DNA of 64,000 bases, from positions 3,425 to 67,424 of the forward strand of contig CAZPMS010000006.1 in the NCBI GenBank assembly GCA_964588165.1, in the 5' to 3' direction. Shown piece by piece: positions 32,035 to 53,933 of the stretch. A program made the position numbers and the translations under genes. Each line of letters opens with the position of its first letter. Position 1 is the first letter of the stretch. The notes beneath the pieces are model-generated. The model saw only the letters and a list, made by a program, of their open reading frames with translations. It made no database searches and was not told where the DNA came from. The DNA comes from an uncultured Gammaproteobacteria bacterium (GTDB lineage Bacteria; Patescibacteriota; Patescibacteriia; UBA1558; UBA10009).

Positions 32035-32132
32035 TGGCAGGGATTTGCCCCGCTTTTCGTGAAAGGCGGGATAAAAACCCAGACCAACGGTTTTGGACCC
32101 AGCCCTTCGCGAAGGGCTGGGTGGAGACCCTC
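32035..32132 (-). pseudogene. ghost of tRNA-Trp 3' half carrying two GC hairpin insertions
   Basis: Minus strand GAGGGTCTCCA[CCCAGCCCTTCGCGAAGGGCTGGG]TCCAAAACCGTTGGTCTGGGTT[..CCCGCCTTTCACGAAAAGCGGGG]CAAATCCCTGCCA aligns to the tRNA-Trp anticodon stem through CCA. The 3' acceptor strand is mostly deleted. Confidence 0.75.
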
Positions 32133-32148
32133 AAAAATCATATTATTT

Positions 32149-32223
32149 TGGCAGGAGCGCTAGGATTTGAACCCAGACCAACGGTTTTGGAGACCGTCAT
32201 GCTACCATTGACACCACGCTCCC
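32149..32223 (-). tRNA. tRNA-Trp (anticodon CCA)
   Basis: 75 nt cloverleaf GGGAGCG..ACGGT-CTCCAAA-ACCGT..CTGGG-TTCAAAT-CCTAG-CGCTCCT-G-CCA. CCA is encoded. Confidence 0.9.
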
Positions 32224-32258
32224 ATCAAAAAAATATGATTATCTTAAATTTAATCTCT

Positions 32259-32483
32259 TTAAAAGACCATGATAAGCGATCCATATTGTTTTAGTTTTCT
32301 TTCCCTCACTTTGGCATCTATTTCTTTCTGATACGCTTCATAATAAAACAATTTGGGATTTTTCATCCGTTTAGTAGTATACACTTTTCCACTTTTATGT
32401 TCAGACAATCGTCTATTTAGGTTATTAGTATACCCTATGTATATTTTCCCATGATCATCAAGTTGTAAATAAACATAATACAT
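32259..32483 (-). CDS. small GIY-YIG nuclease-family protein (COG2827-like)
   Basis: 74 aa. YVYLQ..GKIYIGYTNNLNRRLSEH..YYE. Ends 36 nt upstream of tRNA-Trp on the same strand. Confidence 0.8.
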   Translation of the reverse strand: MYYVYLQLDDHGKIYIGYTNNLNRRLSEHKSGKVYTTKRMKNPKLFYYEAYQKEIDAKVRERKLKQYGSLIMVF

Positions 32484-33211: not shown

Positions 33212-33286
33212 TGGAGCCGAGAAGAGGAATCGAACCCCCAACCTACAGTTTACAAAACTGTTGCTCTACCATTGAGCTATCTCGGC
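33212..33286 (-). tRNA. tRNA-Thr (anticodon UGU)
   Basis: 75 nt GCCGAGA-TA-GCTC-AATGGTA-GAGC-A-ACAGT-TTTGTAA-ACTGT-AGGTT-GGGGG-TTCGATT-CCTCT-TCTCGGC-T-CCA. Confidence 0.9.
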
Positions 33287-33308: not shown

Positions 33309-33415
33309 CCTACAGTTTATGCCGCCTTTAGGAGGTGGCAAAACTGTTGCTCCCTGCCCCGTTTACTCCAAACAAATGTGAGGAGTTATGCGGGGTACCA
33401 TTGAGCTACAACGGC
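33309..33415 (-). pseudogene. ghost tRNA-Thr(UGU), 5' two-thirds, different acceptor (GCCGTTG), two hairpin insertions
   Basis: GCCGTTGTAGCTCAATGGT[43-44 nt hairpin 33353-33396]GAGCAACAGTTTT[GCCACCTCCTAAAGGCGGC 33321-33339]ATAAACTGTAGG. T-arm and 3' acceptor are missing. Confidence 0.8.
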
Positions 33416-33553: not shown

Positions 33554-33638
33554 TGGTGGGCCGGGCAGGATTCGAACCTGCGAAGGCAGAGCCAACAGAT
33601 TTACAGTCTGTCCCGTTTGACCGCTTCGGTACCGACCC
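33554..33638 (-). tRNA. tRNA-Tyr (anticodon GUA), class II with long variable arm
   Basis: 85 nt GGGTCGG..ACAGA-CTGTAAA-TCTGT-TGGCTCTGCCTTC-GCAGG-TTCGAAT-CCTGC-CCGGCCC-A-CCA. Confidence 0.9.
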
Positions 33639-33882
33639 ACAAATTTTTAACTAGCTCCTTAAAGGCTCTTCCTCCTTTATAAGATTTTATCAGAAGCTCT
33701 CTTTTATATGCATCTTGTTTAGAAAAATATCTTTCCGAATAAACCAACTTCCAAGGGACACCTGATTTTGTTGATTTTACAAAACCTTTATTATGTCTAG
33801 CTAAACGATTAAATAAATTCTTACAATGACCTGTATAGTATCTATCTAAAGATTTACTATGCAATATATAAACTATAAACAT
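33601..33882 (-). CDS. small GIY-YIG nuclease-family protein whose 3' end is encoded by tRNA-Tyr
   Basis: IVYILHS..RYYTGHCKNLFNRLARH. ATG at 33882 (the track uses GTG at 33885). The last 38 nt are tRNA-Tyr positions 1-38, and the stop TAA is the GUAAA of the anticodon loop. Confidence 0.8.
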   Translation of the reverse strand: MFIVYILHSKSLDRYYTGHCKNLFNRLARHNKGFVKSTKSGVPWKLVYSERYFSKQDAYKRELLIKSYKGGRAFKELVKNLWVGTEAVKRDRL

Positions 33883-33896
33883 CACTTTTCATTTAA

Positions 33897-33995
33897 GATT
33901 TATGCCCGCCTATGGCGGCACCCCGCCGTAGGCGGTGGCAGTCTGTCCCGTTTATCCCGCCAAAGGCGGCGATTTGACCGCTTCGGTACCGACCC
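33897..33995 (-). pseudogene. ghost tRNA-Tyr 5' half (positions 1-41) with hairpin insertions in the D-loop and anticodon loop
   Basis: GGGTCGGTACCGAAGCGGTCAAA[TCGCCGCCTTTGGCGGGAT, TTT duplicated]AAACGGGACAGACTG[36-nt double hairpin 33903-33938]TAAATCT, then diverges into the GIY-YIG gene. Confidence 0.8.
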
Positions 33996-34086
33996 GATGG
34001 AGCCGTTGTGCGGACTCGAACCACAAACCCCTTCCTTACCCCCGCAAGATTTCGTTTCACTCAATCTGCGGGGCAAGCATGGAAGT

Positions 34087-34202
<116 letters not shown>

Positions 34203-34318
34203 AAGTGCTCCCTGCCCCGCTTACTCCGAACAAAAGTAGGAGTTATGCGGGGTACCAACTGAGCTACAACGGCAATAATGTTTTTTTAAAAAAACATATT
34301 CTTATGGCATAACTTCTT

Positions 34319-34371
34319 TCTACCCCAGCCAAAGGCTGGTCCGCCTCTGACGGAAACTGAGCTATGTCGGC
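34319..34371 (-). pseudogene. third tRNA-Thr-like 5' fragment (acceptor GCCGACA) with a twin hairpin in the D-loop
   Basis: GCCGACATAGCTCAGTT[TCCGTCAGAGGCGGA][CCAGCCTTTGGCTGG]GGTAGA, then decays. The perfect palindrome ATGTTTTTTTAAAAAAACAT (34279-34298) lies downstream. Confidence 0.65.
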
Positions 34372-34394
34372 ACGTTAGGCATTACTTTATTTAA

Positions 34395-43519: not shown

Positions 43520-43600
43520 GTCATTCCGAGCGAGGCTAAACCCTCGCCTTAACGTTTAAATTATTAAAAAATTGTTTAACGAAGAATTCAGCTTATCATT
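43520..43600. mobile_element. degenerate GTCAT-TIR MITE (copy 3)
   Basis: The left arm GTCATTCCGAGCGAGGCTAAACCCTCGCCTTAACG is clear. The right arm TAACGAAGAATTCAGCTTATCATT is only weakly related. Total length is ~81 bp, like the 83-bp copies. Confidence 0.4.
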
Positions 43601-43923: not shown

Positions 43924-44299
43924 GCCATTCCGAGCTTGTCGAGGAATCCCGTTATTCCGGAAAGACGATTTTTAAATTCTTATTAACTCGCTTTATTAAA
44001 TCCAATTTTTTAAAACGACTCCATTTTTTTAACTGTTTTTCTCTATCAATCGCTTCAATAATACTTTCATAACTTTCAAAATAAACTAATTCATCAACAT
44101 TATATTTTTTAGTAAATCCTTTTAATTTTAATTGATGTTCATCTAATCTTCTAGCTAAATCATTGGTAACTCCTATATAAATCACTGTTCTCCTATGATT
44201 CATTAAAAAATAGACGTAAAATTCTTTTTGTAACACATTTTAAACTTTCCTACCCTGATACATTTATTAACGGGATCTCTCCACCTTGGTCGAGATGAC
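43924..44299 (-). mobile_element. GTCAT-TIR element carrying a GIY-YIG gene (putative autonomous partner of the 83-bp MITEs)
   Basis: Plus-strand left arm GCCATTCCGAGCTTGTCGAGGAATCCCGTTA (43924-43954). The right arm 44268-44299 reverse-complements to GTCATCTCGACCAAGGTGGAGAGATCCCGTTA. The ORF stop TAA lies inside the left arm. Confidence 0.7.
43952..44236 (-). CDS. small GIY-YIG nuclease-family protein (COG2827-like)
   Basis: 94 aa. FYVYFLMN..VIYIGVTNDLARRLDEH..FTKKYNV..LVYFE. Confidence 0.85.
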   Translation of the reverse strand: MLQKEFYVYFLMNHRRTVIYIGVTNDLARRLDEHQLKLKGFTKKYNVDELVYFESYESIIEAIDREKQLKKWSRFKKLDLIKRVNKNLKIVFPE

Positions 44300-48777: not shown

Positions 48778-48954
48778 TGGCTGCCGGGGCTGGATTTTCA
48801 CCCCGCCGTATTGGCTGTGGAGACAGGACTCGAACCTGTAACATTCGCATTAACAGTGCGACGTTCTACCATTGAACTACTCCACAACTAATGTAGATAG
48901 ACGAAAATACTGCCCGCCAAAGGCGGGTCCGCCCTTGGCGGAAACTACCCGGCA
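48778..48954 (-). pseudogene. outer (disrupted) tRNA-Asn-like gene enclosing the intact tRNA-Asn
   Basis: The 5' piece is TGCCGGG-TA-GTT[twin hairpin 48913-48942]CAGTA (48954->48908). The 3' piece is ...CCCGGCA-G-CCA (48809->48778). The acceptor halves TGCCGGG/CCCGGCA are perfectly complementary. The anticodon arm is missing. Confidence 0.7.
48812..48886 (-). tRNA. tRNA-Asn (anticodon GUU)
   Basis: 75 nt TGTGGAG-TA-GTTC-AATGGTA-GAAC-G-TCGCA-CTGTTAA-TGCGA-ATGTT-ACAGG-TTCGAGT-CCTGT-CTCCACA-G-CCA. A U1-A72 pair also occurs in E. coli tRNA-Asn. Confidence 0.9.
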
Positions 48955-52381: not shown

Positions 52382-52557
52382 CGAGGATAAATTCCTCGCC
52401 TGCGGAATATTATATTTATTAGCGAGGCTAAACCCTCGCCTGAACGATCTACTATCCCCAAAGTTGAGCAGAGGGTTTAGCCTCTGCATAAAATCCGTAG
52501 ACTATAAATGTAATAAATTACTTAACAAAATACCGTAACAGAGGAATTTATCCTCTG
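52382..52557. repeat. four-hairpin composite repeat filling the purD-purN spacer
   Basis: H1 CGAGGATAAATTCCTCG (52382), H2 GCGAGGCTAAACCCTCGC (52422), H3 GCAGAGGGTTTAGCCTCTGC (52468), H4 CAGAGGAATTTATCCTCTG (52539). H3 resembles rc(H2) and H4 resembles rc(H1). H2 plus its flank equals the arm at 43527-43554. Confidence 0.65.
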
Positions 52558-52562
52558 CAAAT

Positions 52563-53933
52563 TTAAGACTTTAATTCTTCCATCATCTTAATTCTTTTTT
52601 CTATCAATTCCTTAGTTCCAATATCCGGCCTATAGAAAACCGGACCGGTTATCTTTTTTATTTCTGCTTCTACCATTTTTTCTGCTTCATATAAATCTTC
52701 ATGAATACCCACTAATGCCACGGCCCTGGAACCGGCTAGATACAGGCCGTCTTCTCTTTGATCGACTGAGGCATAAAAAACTTTAACTTTAGACTGGTCT
52801 ACTTTAGAAACATCAATCTTTTTATCTTTGGTAGGATTTTCCGGATAACCTTCTGGCACTACATATTTACAGACTGTAGATTTTTTTTGAAGCTCTGGCT
52901 TTAATTGATCTAAATTACCGTTAATAATGGCTGAACATATTTCTAAAAAATCTGCTGATTTGTTGGCGGGAAAAGTTTTAGGCGGGAAAAGTGGCAACAC
53001 ATTCATGGCCTCTGGATCGCCTAACCTGGCATTATACTCAATCAGTTTGACTCCATTCTTAGTTAGCATAAAACCGCCATACAAAAATCCCTTATAGCTT
53101 TTACCAAACTTCTTTTTTAAAGCAACAGCCGTAGCTTCATTTACCCGACGGGCTTCTTTAATATCTTCTTCATCTAAAAATGGTAAAGAAAAATCTGCCA
53201 TAGAATAAGAACCCATGCCACCGGTATTAGGTCCTTTATCATCTACTAGAGCTCTTTTATTATCTTGAACCGCTGGCAGATGTAATAAATGTTCGCCATC
53301 ACAAAAACTCATCAAACTAAATTCCTGGCCAACCAATTTTTCTTCTATAACAACCTTATGACCTGATTCAAAATGTTTTTTTATAATCTCCAGGCCTTCG
53401 TTCATATTTTTAAAATGGTCGCCAGCCACAGTTACTCCTTTACCGCCAGCTAAACCGTCTTGTTTAATTACAAAATTTTCTTCCAAATGTTGAATCCAGT
53501 CTTCTACCCCTTCCATATCTTCACCCAGTCCTTCGCGAAGAGCTGGGTCAAAAACCATAAACTCGGGACTGCCATTTATTTTATAATCCTTAAATAATTC
53601 ACGAGTGAAGGCTTTACTGGTTTCTATCTGGGCTAAATCCTTGTCCGGGCCTACTGATGGAATGCCAACTTGGGATAAAACATCTACTACTCCTTGGCCT
53701 AAAGGAGCTTCTGGACCGATAAGGCAAAAATCAATAGATTTTTCGGTGGCATAACTAACTATAGAAGTATTATTTTTAAGCTCGCCAACTTTATAATCAG
53801 TTGCCAGCTCTTTAGTGCCTGGATTTGTGGATGAGGCAAATACATAAAGCTCTATTTCTTCTTTAGAAGATTTTAAAACAGAAGCCATGGCATGCTCTCT
53901 GGCACCAGAGCCAACTAACAAAACTTTTTTCAT
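52563..53933 (-). CDS. purD: phosphoribosylamine--glycine ligase
   Basis: 456 aa, ATP-grasp. VLLVGSGAREHA, GLAGGKGV, NARLGDPE. Confidence 0.93.
   Translation of the reverse strand: MKKVLLVGSGAREHAMASVLKSSKEEIELYVFASSTNPGTKELATDYKVGELKNNTSIVSYATEKSIDFCLIGPEAPLGQGVVDVLSQVGIPSVGPDKDLAQIETSKAFTRELFKDYKINGSPEFMVFDPALREGLGEDMEGVEDWIQHLEENFVIKQDGLAGGKGVTVAGDHFKNMNEGLEIIKKHFESGHKVVIEEKLVGQEFSLMSFCDGEHLLHLPAVQDNKRALVDDKGPNTGGMGSYSMADFSLPFLDEEDIKEARRVNEATAVALKKKFGKSYKGFLYGGFMLTKNGVKLIEYNARLGDPEAMNVLPLFPPKTFPANKSADFLEICSAIINGNLDQLKPELQKKSTVCKYVVPEGYPENPTKDKKIDVSKVDQSKVKVFYASVDQREDGLYLAGSRAVALVGIHEDLYEAEKMVEAEIKKITGPVFYRPDIGTKELIEKRIKMMEELKS

Follow-up and report, generated by a model that had tools for sequence, protein, structure and literature searches.

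Phage T4 SegB is a free-standing, site-specific GIY-YIG homing endonuclease encoded in a tRNA gene cluster. In a related genome it cleaves the tRNA region, with the result that its own tRNA region is preferentially inherited (PMC2330249). Exchange of host gene fragments via intron mobility has been described as well (PMC7315562). Here we analyzed a 64-kb stretch of DNA (the window) in which, as in the case of SegB, a GIY-YIG nuclease gene is located among tRNA genes. At positions 32035–32483 the nuclease open reading frame (ORF) is followed by a live tRNA-Trp gene and by the remains of a second tRNA-Trp, called the ghost, which is split by a perfect 24-bp palindrome, called PAL. All genic features of this nuclease-tRNA-Trp locus are encoded on the minus strand. 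We think it rather likely that this locus is what remains of a mobile cassette common in Patescibacteria, a degenerate copy that is probably immobile.

The mitochondrial atp6-ORF360 of Allomyces, credited to work of Paquin, Laforest and Lang from 1994, is reportedly a mobile endonuclease ORF that carries a piece of its target gene. Integrase islands duplicate part of a tRNA gene and keep the tRNA functional after insertion. They differ from our locus, where no integrase is present, the break lies in the anticodon loop/arm and not in the 3' attachment (att) core, and a nuclease gene of about 250 nucleotides (nt) makes up the cargo. Short palindromic repeats are known in the form of repetitive extragenic palindromic (REP) sequences and REP doublets forming hairpins (REPINs), miniature inverted-repeat transposable elements (MITEs) and Rickettsia palindromic elements, of which the latter occur in frame in proteins while MITEs make target duplications. 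No description of GIY-YIG/tRNA-Trp modules, of the cassette or of PAL was found in the literature searched.

A tRNA-Trp ghost split by a palindrome

Read on the minus strand, the ghost consists of GGGTCTCCA, PAL, TCCAAAACCGTTGGTCTGGGTT, a second insert of 28 nt, CAAATCC and, after 8 missing nt, CTGCCA (coordinates of all features are given in Table 1). When both 28-nt inserts are removed, 36/37 positions are identical to nt 25–61 of the tRNA, and the copy runs from the anticodon stem to the CCA end, as a preliminary description of this DNA had stated. The gapped local alignment score of ghost and tRNA is 45 compared to 17.5 ± 3.2 (maximum 33) for 2000 dinucleotide shuffles, a control that the same description had called for. 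It had also correctly placed the palindrome in the anticodon loop with TCCA on both sides, a hairpin in the T loop and the loss of most of the 3' acceptor strand. One of its distances needs a small correction: the ghost lies 18 nt and not about 16 nt past the CCA of the live gene. The gap between tRNA-Trp and the nuclease ORF, which is indeed found on the same strand, amounts to 35 nt (32258..32224).

The ghost is a non-functional tRNA, i.e. dead DNA, and the cell's tRNA-Trp in the window is the complete gene next to it. The Rfam tRNA model (RF00005) does not match the ghost; between 30000 and 36000 the four live tRNAs alone score, even at E values up to 10. ARAGORN called no tRNA at the ghost either, and a permissive Rfam scan returned no known RNA family for the ghost or its hairpins. 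A split or intron-containing functional tRNA was considered and rejected, as the ghost here lacks the 5' half and carries the 8-nt deletion. A group I intron in the tRNA was likewise dismissed, no intron family being found in the permissive scan. Identical sequence is present on contigs of several samples, with 99.6–100% identity over the six loci retrieved. The locus is therefore not an assembly artifact.

PAL is a dispersed repeat flanked by short direct repeats

The PAL copy of the ghost is the sole perfect GC-rich palindrome with arms of at least 12 nt in the 64 kb, and including the flanking A/T its symmetry extends over 26 nt (32122..32097). In relatives the consensus is (A)CCCAGCCnTTCGCGAAnGGCTGGG(T), 24–26 nt in length, and PAL is found at the same tRNA position in at least 17 relatives. 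An exact-pattern scan of metagenome contigs yielded at least 105 distinct PAL sites (from at least 120 stretches). Among the matches listed, about 25 of the 105 sites are tRNA-Trp ghosts adjoining a GIY-YIG gene, and the rest are intergenic or lie within ORFs. Exact 4-nt direct repeats flank PAL at 37 of the 105 sites listed, compared to 0.41 expected: TCAA/TTGA is found 23 times, TCCA 11 times, TAAA twice and CAGG once. A 5-nt repeat occurs at only one of the sites listed, and nested copies of PAL within PAL are found among them. The 4-nt repeats represent target-site duplications at T-N-N-A. Since PAL makes such duplications elsewhere, the TCCA duplication in the ghost is an insertion signature.

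The second PAL copy of the genome, flanked by TCA on both sides, lies in purD (52563..53933, minus strand). Together with the TCA duplication it amounts to 27 nt in frame, by which PurD gains the nine residues DPALREGLG. These residues are absent from 12/12 closest homologs (63–75% identity) as well as from B. subtilis-type PurD structures, and the homologs measure 445–447, 443 or 438 amino acids (aa) compared to 456 in the window. The 12 homologs without the nine residues suggest an empty site in purD. Its target TCTTCA/AAAACC resembles the tRNA-Trp anticodon loop TCTCCA/AAACC.

The insert in the T loop of the ghost contains the hairpin CCCGCCTTTCACGAAAAGCGGG, which fits the motif GCCYTTCRCGAARRGC. 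This motif has six strand-wise matches at three sites of the window, whereas 0.32 are expected. PAL-type insertions also occupy the T loop of the ghost in further loci of relatives, namely L016, L033 and, there with homologous flanks (GGGTTTTAATCCAGCC), L133 and L067. The T-loop insert is a degenerate member of the PAL family. The preliminary description had taken the hairpins for decay; this is refuted, as both are insertions of a mobile palindromic repeat with target duplications of 3–4 bp, which fall at T(N)NA. Terminal inverted repeats, a target duplication of fixed length, dispersed copies and the putative empty site in purD are features PAL shares with MITE-like elements. PAL is mobile in its own right and spreads on its own in these genomes. 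No transposase or autonomous partner of PAL was identified; it is by association alone that the GIY-YIG gene becomes a candidate.

In L067 (3305–3397) and L138 the T-arm region of the ghost is now a perfect palindrome of 60 nt that includes flanking tRNA sequence, which suggests palindrome growth by fold-back copying. In several other loci (L053, L089, L107, L121, L132, L137, L143 and others) a TTGACA box stands directly against PAL (TTGA-PAL-TTGACA), with a TATAAT-like box about 17 nt further on. Such a -35-like box abuts PAL at 16 of the 105 sites among the matches listed, and elsewhere A/T runs are found; PAL seems to insert into, or to help form, promoter -35 regions.

These boxes and the terminator-like A/T runs would also fit a ghost whose hairpins are functional and kept by selection, be it as a 3' trailer, terminator, processing signal or palindromic protein-binding site (operator or recombination site). 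In line with this, PAL is still perfect in the window, and the changes from C..G to G..C that set it apart from L133 and L016 are symmetric and leave pairing intact; its palindromy runs through the center (TCGCGA), suggesting a dimeric DNA-binding protein. However, its placement relative to genes varies, being upstream in most loci and downstream in the window, decay is visible in the remainder of the ghost, which has lost 8 nt and holds a degenerate second hairpin, and the in-frame copy in purD cannot be a terminator. At the window locus no terminator-like site and no T-run terminator was predicted at the hairpins, no Rfam family matched, and promoter-like hits were at shuffle level. We consider a selected function of this kind improbable.

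The nuclease-tRNA-Trp module in relatives

A protein-seeded scan covering one genome per species yielded 39 loci. In 20/39 of them tRNA-Trp starts 0–60 nt past the nuclease ORF on the same strand. The same slot holds tRNA-Arg(CCT) in 1/39, and tRNA-Trp lies directly upstream in 2/39. In a wider set tRNA-Trp follows 31/61 ORFs of the nuclease clade. The adjacency of GIY-YIG gene and tRNA-Trp is massively enriched, and the nuclease-tRNA module proposed from the window is real. Since the gene of ribosomal protein L33 (rpmG) is located just upstream in 11 loci, the site of the module is the native tRNA-Trp site; the locus of the window is such a native rpmG-tRNA-Trp neighborhood.

In the usual layout nt 1–36 of tRNA-Trp, ending with GGTCTCCA, are followed by a palindrome of 24–26 nt, by TCCAAAACC and a few nt more and, after 15–40 nt, by the nuclease ORF, 0–15 nt and a complete tRNA-Trp. 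The usual ghost is thus a 5' part that comprises nt 1 to about 43 and precedes the nuclease gene. Every complete module holds a PAL-type palindrome in the tRNA-Trp fragment, mostly as GGTCTCCA-PAL-TCCAAAACC. The palindrome is positioned at exactly nt 36/37 in nearly all modules, a module without PAL was not seen, and constant short tRNA scraps adjoin PAL. Upstream ghosts end at tRNA nt 40–48 in 15/16 cases and downstream ghosts begin at nt 25–29 in 4/7, which places the breakpoints at both bases of the anticodon arm.

In a census of distinct tRNA-Trp loci the ghost was located upstream in 21 (plus two cut by contig ends), downstream in three (window, L016, L133) and on both sides in two (L009, L080); L029 and L033 are by eye of the both-sided type too. 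With 3 of about 30 loci the window belongs to a rare downstream-ghost form. The displaced 3' half recognized early on is thus seen in the window but is a minority layout, as relatives mostly carry a 5' ghost upstream of the nuclease. The downstream layout is best read as the remains of a cassette with ghosts on both sides.

A direct repeat of the 3' part of a tRNA is a classic mark of integrase-type integration, and the ghost might be imagined as the att-site scar of a lost element of this type that once resided in the 3' end of tRNA-Trp. Yet only 18 nt separate tRNA and ghost, and there is no recombinase family among the Pfam hits of the neighboring genes. We therefore rejected this reading, which we regard as very improbable indeed; moreover the repeat starts in the anticodon stem, is split by the palindrome and recurs at the same place in dozens of nuclease-bearing loci.

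Related GIY-YIG ORFs (49% identity) were also observed in the cultured Firmicutes Mediannikoviicoccus and Lagierella (L022–L026), where they lie inside rRNA operons about 650–730 nt downstream of tRNA-Ala/tRNA-Ile.

Ghost and live tRNA-Trp can belong to different alleles

L080 (duplicated by L094) shows the order upstream 5' ghost, PAL, nuclease, live tRNA, PAL and downstream 3' ghost. When its outer ghost halves are rejoined, ARAGORN calls the product a tRNA-Trp. The outer 3' half matches tRNAs of the L008/L018 type at 33/36 positions compared to 26/35 for the live tRNA of L080 itself, and the resident TCCA is present on both outer sides of the PAL-bounded cassette. Because the outer 3' half mismatches the live tRNA of its own locus, the live tRNA and the nuclease lie PAL-bounded inside the resident tRNA-Trp of another allele.

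L133 is the closest syntenic relative of the window, with the same upstream ORF and an intact nuclease that is 72% identical. The 3' part of its ghost matches the live tRNA of the window at 33/36 positions and its own at 27/35, and the live tRNA of L133 itself is matched at 27/29 positions by the scrap ahead of PAL. As the two parts match different tRNAs, the ghost of L133 is a junction of cassette-type and resident-type sequence; it appears to show a later replacement of the live copy. In L040 the ghost is of the host-lineage type (its L33 is 78% identical to that of L015) and the live tRNA is different. Both loci indicate replacement, as L080 does.

Nuclease identity and host L33 identity are barely correlated (r=0.13); the window and L030, for example, share 84% identity in L33 and 54% in the nuclease. 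A distribution incongruent with the host phylogeny, together with a co-transferred foreign flank, is consistent with a homing endonuclease gene.

The window alone could be accounted for by an in-place tandem duplication of tRNA-Trp, with or without the nuclease gene, whose spare copy was colonized by PAL and decayed. The GIY-YIG gene would then be a co-transcribed neighbor that serves another purpose and moves nothing, and its purifying selection would be that of a host gene. PAL is independent and widespread with a target preference of its own, tRNA loops contain its preferred TCCA/TCAA targets, and several PAL variants occur within one ghost in L011 and L018. In the window, L007, L009, L015 and L030 the ghost shows no difference from the live tRNA where the two overlap, whereas in L080, L133 and L040 they differ in allele, which a local duplication does not predict. 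Nor does it predict the almost invariable position of PAL at nt 36/37 with no module lacking it, the constant scraps adjoining it or the uncoupling of nuclease and L33 similarity. We hold such a duplication to be unlikely.

The nuclease gene

The nuclease of the window matches the Pfam family GIY-YIG (PF01541) with 49 bits (cut-off 22.6; E=7.8e-13). Y5, Y15, G17, R25, H29 and E61, which are invariant in the family alignment, are all present. Its relatives are 81 aa long with the C-terminus GSSYHGLLKRLxxK, and the 74-aa ORF named in the preliminary description turned out to be an 81-aa gene with a frameshift: the loss of 1 nt near 32276 turns GSSYHGLLKRLNLR into GSLIMVF, both followed by a stop, and takes the copy off frame after residue 69. 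The ancestral stop codon falls 15 nt ahead of tRNA-Trp. By the frameshift the C-terminal helix is lost and the GIY-YIG domain of the window copy is incomplete. In relatives the ORFs are intact at 81 aa, and ratios of non-synonymous to synonymous substitution rates (dN/dS) of 0.06–0.31 show that their nuclease is under purifying selection.

A profile of 11 relatives matches the UPF0213 structures 1zg2 (E=1.4e-6) and 1ywl (E=8e-5), and UvrC and I-TevI match the family profile weakly. No NCBIfam equivalog was found for the nuclease. Judging from the sequence relation and the lack of extra domains, the protein is probably a UPF0213/YhbQ-like single-domain protein, identity being low. The joined nuclease and DNA-binding domains of I-TevI and SegB are not found in the 81-aa protein.

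Proposed history and mechanism

The full form of the proposed cassette, as represented by L080/L094 and L009, comprises PAL, a short tRNA scrap, the 81-aa GIY-YIG gene, a complete tRNA-Trp, another short tRNA scrap and PAL. It interrupts a resident tRNA-Trp between nt 36 and 37, and a copy of the resident TCCA stands at either end. The break in this essential tRNA would be tolerated because the cassette supplies a working tRNA-Trp. The resident halves would persist as ghosts, the 5' half upstream and the 3' half downstream, and recombination between repeated tRNA parts would trim the cassette to one-sided forms. The common form would have retained the upstream ghost, while in the window, L133 and L016 the downstream one alone would be left. 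PAL, which spreads on its own, has also hit the ghost T loop and purD.

For the window we suggest that a PAL-bounded cassette entered the rpmG-tRNA-Trp locus in an ancestor that the window has in common with L133 and L016 and that its left end, i.e. the upstream ghost with PAL, was lost. In the lineage of the window the nuclease would then have been frameshifted, the ghost trimmed to nt 28 and 8 nt lost near its 3' end. The PAL-type element of the T loop is probably older than the split, since it is common to the window, L133, L067 and L016.

Beyond the architecture and its conservation, the mobility of PAL, the insertion into a different resident allele and the selection on the nuclease in relatives, all of which the loci display, we infer that the GIY-YIG protein drives the spread. 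Movement of the cassette could follow either of two routes. In homing (route a) the nuclease would cut a cassette-free tRNA-Trp or a cruciform of PAL and anticodon arm, and the cassette would be copied in during repair with the tRNA halves as homology arms. In transposition (route b) the cassette would move as a PAL-PAL composite via whatever mobilizes solo PAL; the outer TCCA duplication would then be a direct consequence. Route b is weakened since we know of no transposase; in addition, the GIY-YIG enzymes characterized to date produce 3' overhangs of 2 nt, from which a duplication of 4 bp would not result.

Several observations weigh against the cassette. In Pfam and profile searches the 81-aa protein consists of the catalytic domain alone, without a DNA-binding domain, and the anticodon arm of the live tRNA has the same sequence as that of any presumed target. 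Both points weaken route a, and self-immunity is left unexplained as the live tRNA keeps the target sequence. Among the matches listed, about 80 of the 105 PAL sites have no GIY-YIG gene or tRNA-Trp nearby; PAL is thus far commoner than nuclease modules, and the link between nuclease and PAL could be indirect. No polymorphism of empty and occupied sites was found at the window locus among close relatives, where the exact nuclease look-up returned near-identical copies only. The search for an empty allele via the downstream gene gave a single 61% homolog in another context, and the L33 protein of the window had no record in the exact-protein look-up. PAL and the nuclease clade are both absent from the viral contigs scanned, so that no transfer vector was identified. 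Finally, ghost and live tRNA-Trp of the window are of the same allele, and the incomer copy can therefore not be told from the window. Replacement from the other side, which had been proposed because the 3' half is displaced, holds as replacement in L080, L133 and L040 and finds no such sign in the window.

A bolder version of the cassette reading would make the 81-aa GIY-YIG protein a mobilizing, structure-specific nuclease that cuts the cruciform of anticodon arm and PAL, or the PAL ends. The unit PAL-nuclease-tRNA-PAL would then be autonomous, solo 24-bp PALs, numbering thousands, would be its minimal non-autonomous derivatives, and the host would be made dependent by the carried replacement of an essential single-copy tRNA. 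We regard this version as doubtful.

Further features of the locus and the window

Table 1. Positions of the nuclease-tRNA-Trp locus, its parts and the PAL copy in purD
Feature	Position	Strand	Basis or remark
GIY-YIG nuclease ORF, 74 aa	32483..32259	minus	Pfam PF01541; C-terminally frameshifted copy of an 81-aa single-domain protein, UPF0213-like
Out-of-frame remnant of the ancestral nuclease C-terminus (YHGLLKRLNLR, stop TAA 32241..32239)	32239..32276	minus	DNA read against the intact L133 ortholog
Live tRNA-Trp(CCA), CCA encoded	32223..32149	minus	ARAGORN; Rfam tRNA 55.4 bits, E=3e-10
Inverted repeat, leader half AATCATATT	32232..32240		Pairs with 32136..32144, lengthening the acceptor stem of the live tRNA-Trp
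Inverted repeat, trailer half AATATGATT (minus-strand reading)	32136..32144		Partner of 32232..32240
tRNA-Trp ghost, nt 28 to 3' CCA, two 28-nt insertions and 8-nt deletion (T-stem/acceptor 3' strand)	32035..32130	minus	Alignment to live tRNA
PAL, perfect 24-bp palindrome CCCAGCCCTTCGCGAAGGGCTGGG, between tRNA nt 36 and 37 of the ghost	32098..32121		Palindrome scan
TCCA, left copy of the 4-nt target duplication (ghost U33 and anticodon CCA)	32122..32125	minus	Sequence
TCCA, right copy of the 4-nt target duplication	32094..32097	minus	Sequence
Second 28-nt insertion, TTTA and TCCCGCCTTTCACGAAAAGCGGGG, a degenerate PAL-type palindrome, ghost T loop between nt 55 and 56	32048..32075	minus	Motif match
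Second PAL copy of the genome, CCCAGTCCTTCGCGAAGAGCTGGG (53524..53547), TCA/TCA-flanked, in frame in purD	53521..53550		Motif scan

The genome is similar to those of Patescibacteria (Candidate Phyla Radiation): it has a G+C content of 36%, and homologs carry the names Microgenomates, Parcubacteria and Levybacteria. By Pfam the neighboring genes encode a PRK-like kinase, a DUF4015 protein and L33, next to a 136-aa protein without assignment. Leader/trailer inverted repeats also flank tRNA-Trp in L133, L016 and L009, analogous to those of the window but different in sequence. In the relatives with a downstream ghost complementarity is kept despite changed letters, with GTCTTAT/ATAAGAC in L133 and AAGGAATGGGG/CCCCATTCCTT in L016.

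Other tRNA genes of the window are accompanied by fragments and hairpins as well. At 33995-34270 (minus strand) an old tRNA-Thr(GGT), with the acceptor GCCGTTG/CAACGGC and GC-rich hairpins in the D and anticodon loops, is split by a live tRNA-Thr(GGT) at 34179..34104. The live gene is flanked by an 11-nt inverted repeat, TGCCAATAGCC/GGCTATTGGCA, whose parts read like a 22-nt palindrome cut in two. In L021 (2750-2925) a tRNA-Thr(TGT) shows the same tRNA-inside-tRNA design, there with inverted flanks of 17 nt. Within the window a ghost made up of the 5' two-thirds of tRNA-Thr(TGT) is located at 33310-33415 (minus strand), just upstream of the live tRNA-Thr(TGT) at 33286..33212. Hairpins of 38 nt and 19 nt occupy its D and anticodon loops, respectively, and the D-loop hairpin is homologous to that of the tRNA-Thr(GGT) ghost.

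At 33554-33993 (minus strand) a 5' ghost of tRNA-Tyr with hairpins in the D and anticodon loops is followed by the second GIY-YIG ORF (33885..33601, 94 aa), whose last 12 codons and stop lie within the live tRNA-Tyr (33638..33554). In L016 and L008 a GIY-YIG ORF is directly ahead of tRNA-Tyr too. The third small GIY-YIG ORF (43952-44236, minus strand, 94 aa) lies between aspS-like and asnS-like genes without an adjacent tRNA and clusters apart from the tRNA-Trp clade.

Upstream of tRNA-Asn (48886..48812), the segment 48910-48975 (minus strand) consists of GCCGGGTAGTT and the adjacent hairpins TCCGCCAAGGGCGGA and CCCGCCTTTGGCGGG; it may represent a further 5' piece of a tRNA that has taken up insertions in the D loop. 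A comparable piece is present at about 34330-34390. An identical 18-nt hairpin, GCGAGGCTAAACCCTCGC, occurs at 43530-43547 and 52422-52439 and may represent another small repeat family or a shared terminator.

Implications and comparison with known systems

If our reading is true, bacteria of the Candidate Phyla Radiation (CPR), with tiny genomes in which tRNA genes are mostly single, harbor a selfish cassette by which an essential tRNA gene is overwritten and at the same time provided anew. This would open a route by which tRNA alleles are replaced horizontally. Small GIY-YIG genes beside tRNA genes would be explained too (the window has three such ORFs, of which two adjoin a tRNA), as would the tRNA fragments of the window's tRNA cluster and of several related loci. 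PAL may rank among the smallest mobile DNA elements. Annotators should treat tRNA pieces split by PAL as pseudogenes, and PAL explains odd 9-residue insertions in proteins.

PAL resembles REP/REPIN sequences, MITEs and the Rickettsia elements in being scattered in intergenic DNA, sometimes in frame, and in being target-duplicating. With 24 bp, made up of two 12-bp arms, it is below the MITE sizes generally known. Unlike these elements it is common to many deeply divergent CPR lineages and not species-specific, and no REP-associated tyrosine transposase (RAYT) or other transposase was identified. The tRNA introns of Patescibacteria share with the cassette the phylum, the anticodon loops of tRNAs as target and a selfish-element logic. 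For the cassette, in contrast, no intron RNA fold was detected, and the tRNA is restored by duplication and not by splicing. The paper on these introns mentions no palindromes, hairpins, pseudogenes or duplications and uses the word 'fragment' only for rRNA detection and polymerase chain reaction products.

The closest solved relatives of the nuclease by sequence profile, UPF0213/YhbQ proteins 1zg2 (BH0048) and 1ywl (EF2693), are of the same size class and have no extra domains; in the literature searched we found no function of UPF0213 and no linkage to tRNA. SegB is larger and has a DNA-binding part of its own. It is phage-encoded and leaves no ghost or palindrome, whereas the nuclease of the cassette, an 81-aa bare catalytic domain, is encoded by bacterial chromosomes, does not occur in the viral contigs scanned and always comes with a tRNA fragment split by PAL. 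The best analogue of how the cassette would work is provided by the mitochondrial endonuclease ORFs that carry part of their target. In both cases an essential gene is entered, a replacement is supplied and part of the resident gene is left as an adjacent pseudogene. In the cassette, unlike in the mitochondrial ORFs, the target is a tRNA gene, the replacement is a half or whole tRNA, a palindromic mobile repeat lies at the junctions and the host is a bacterium.

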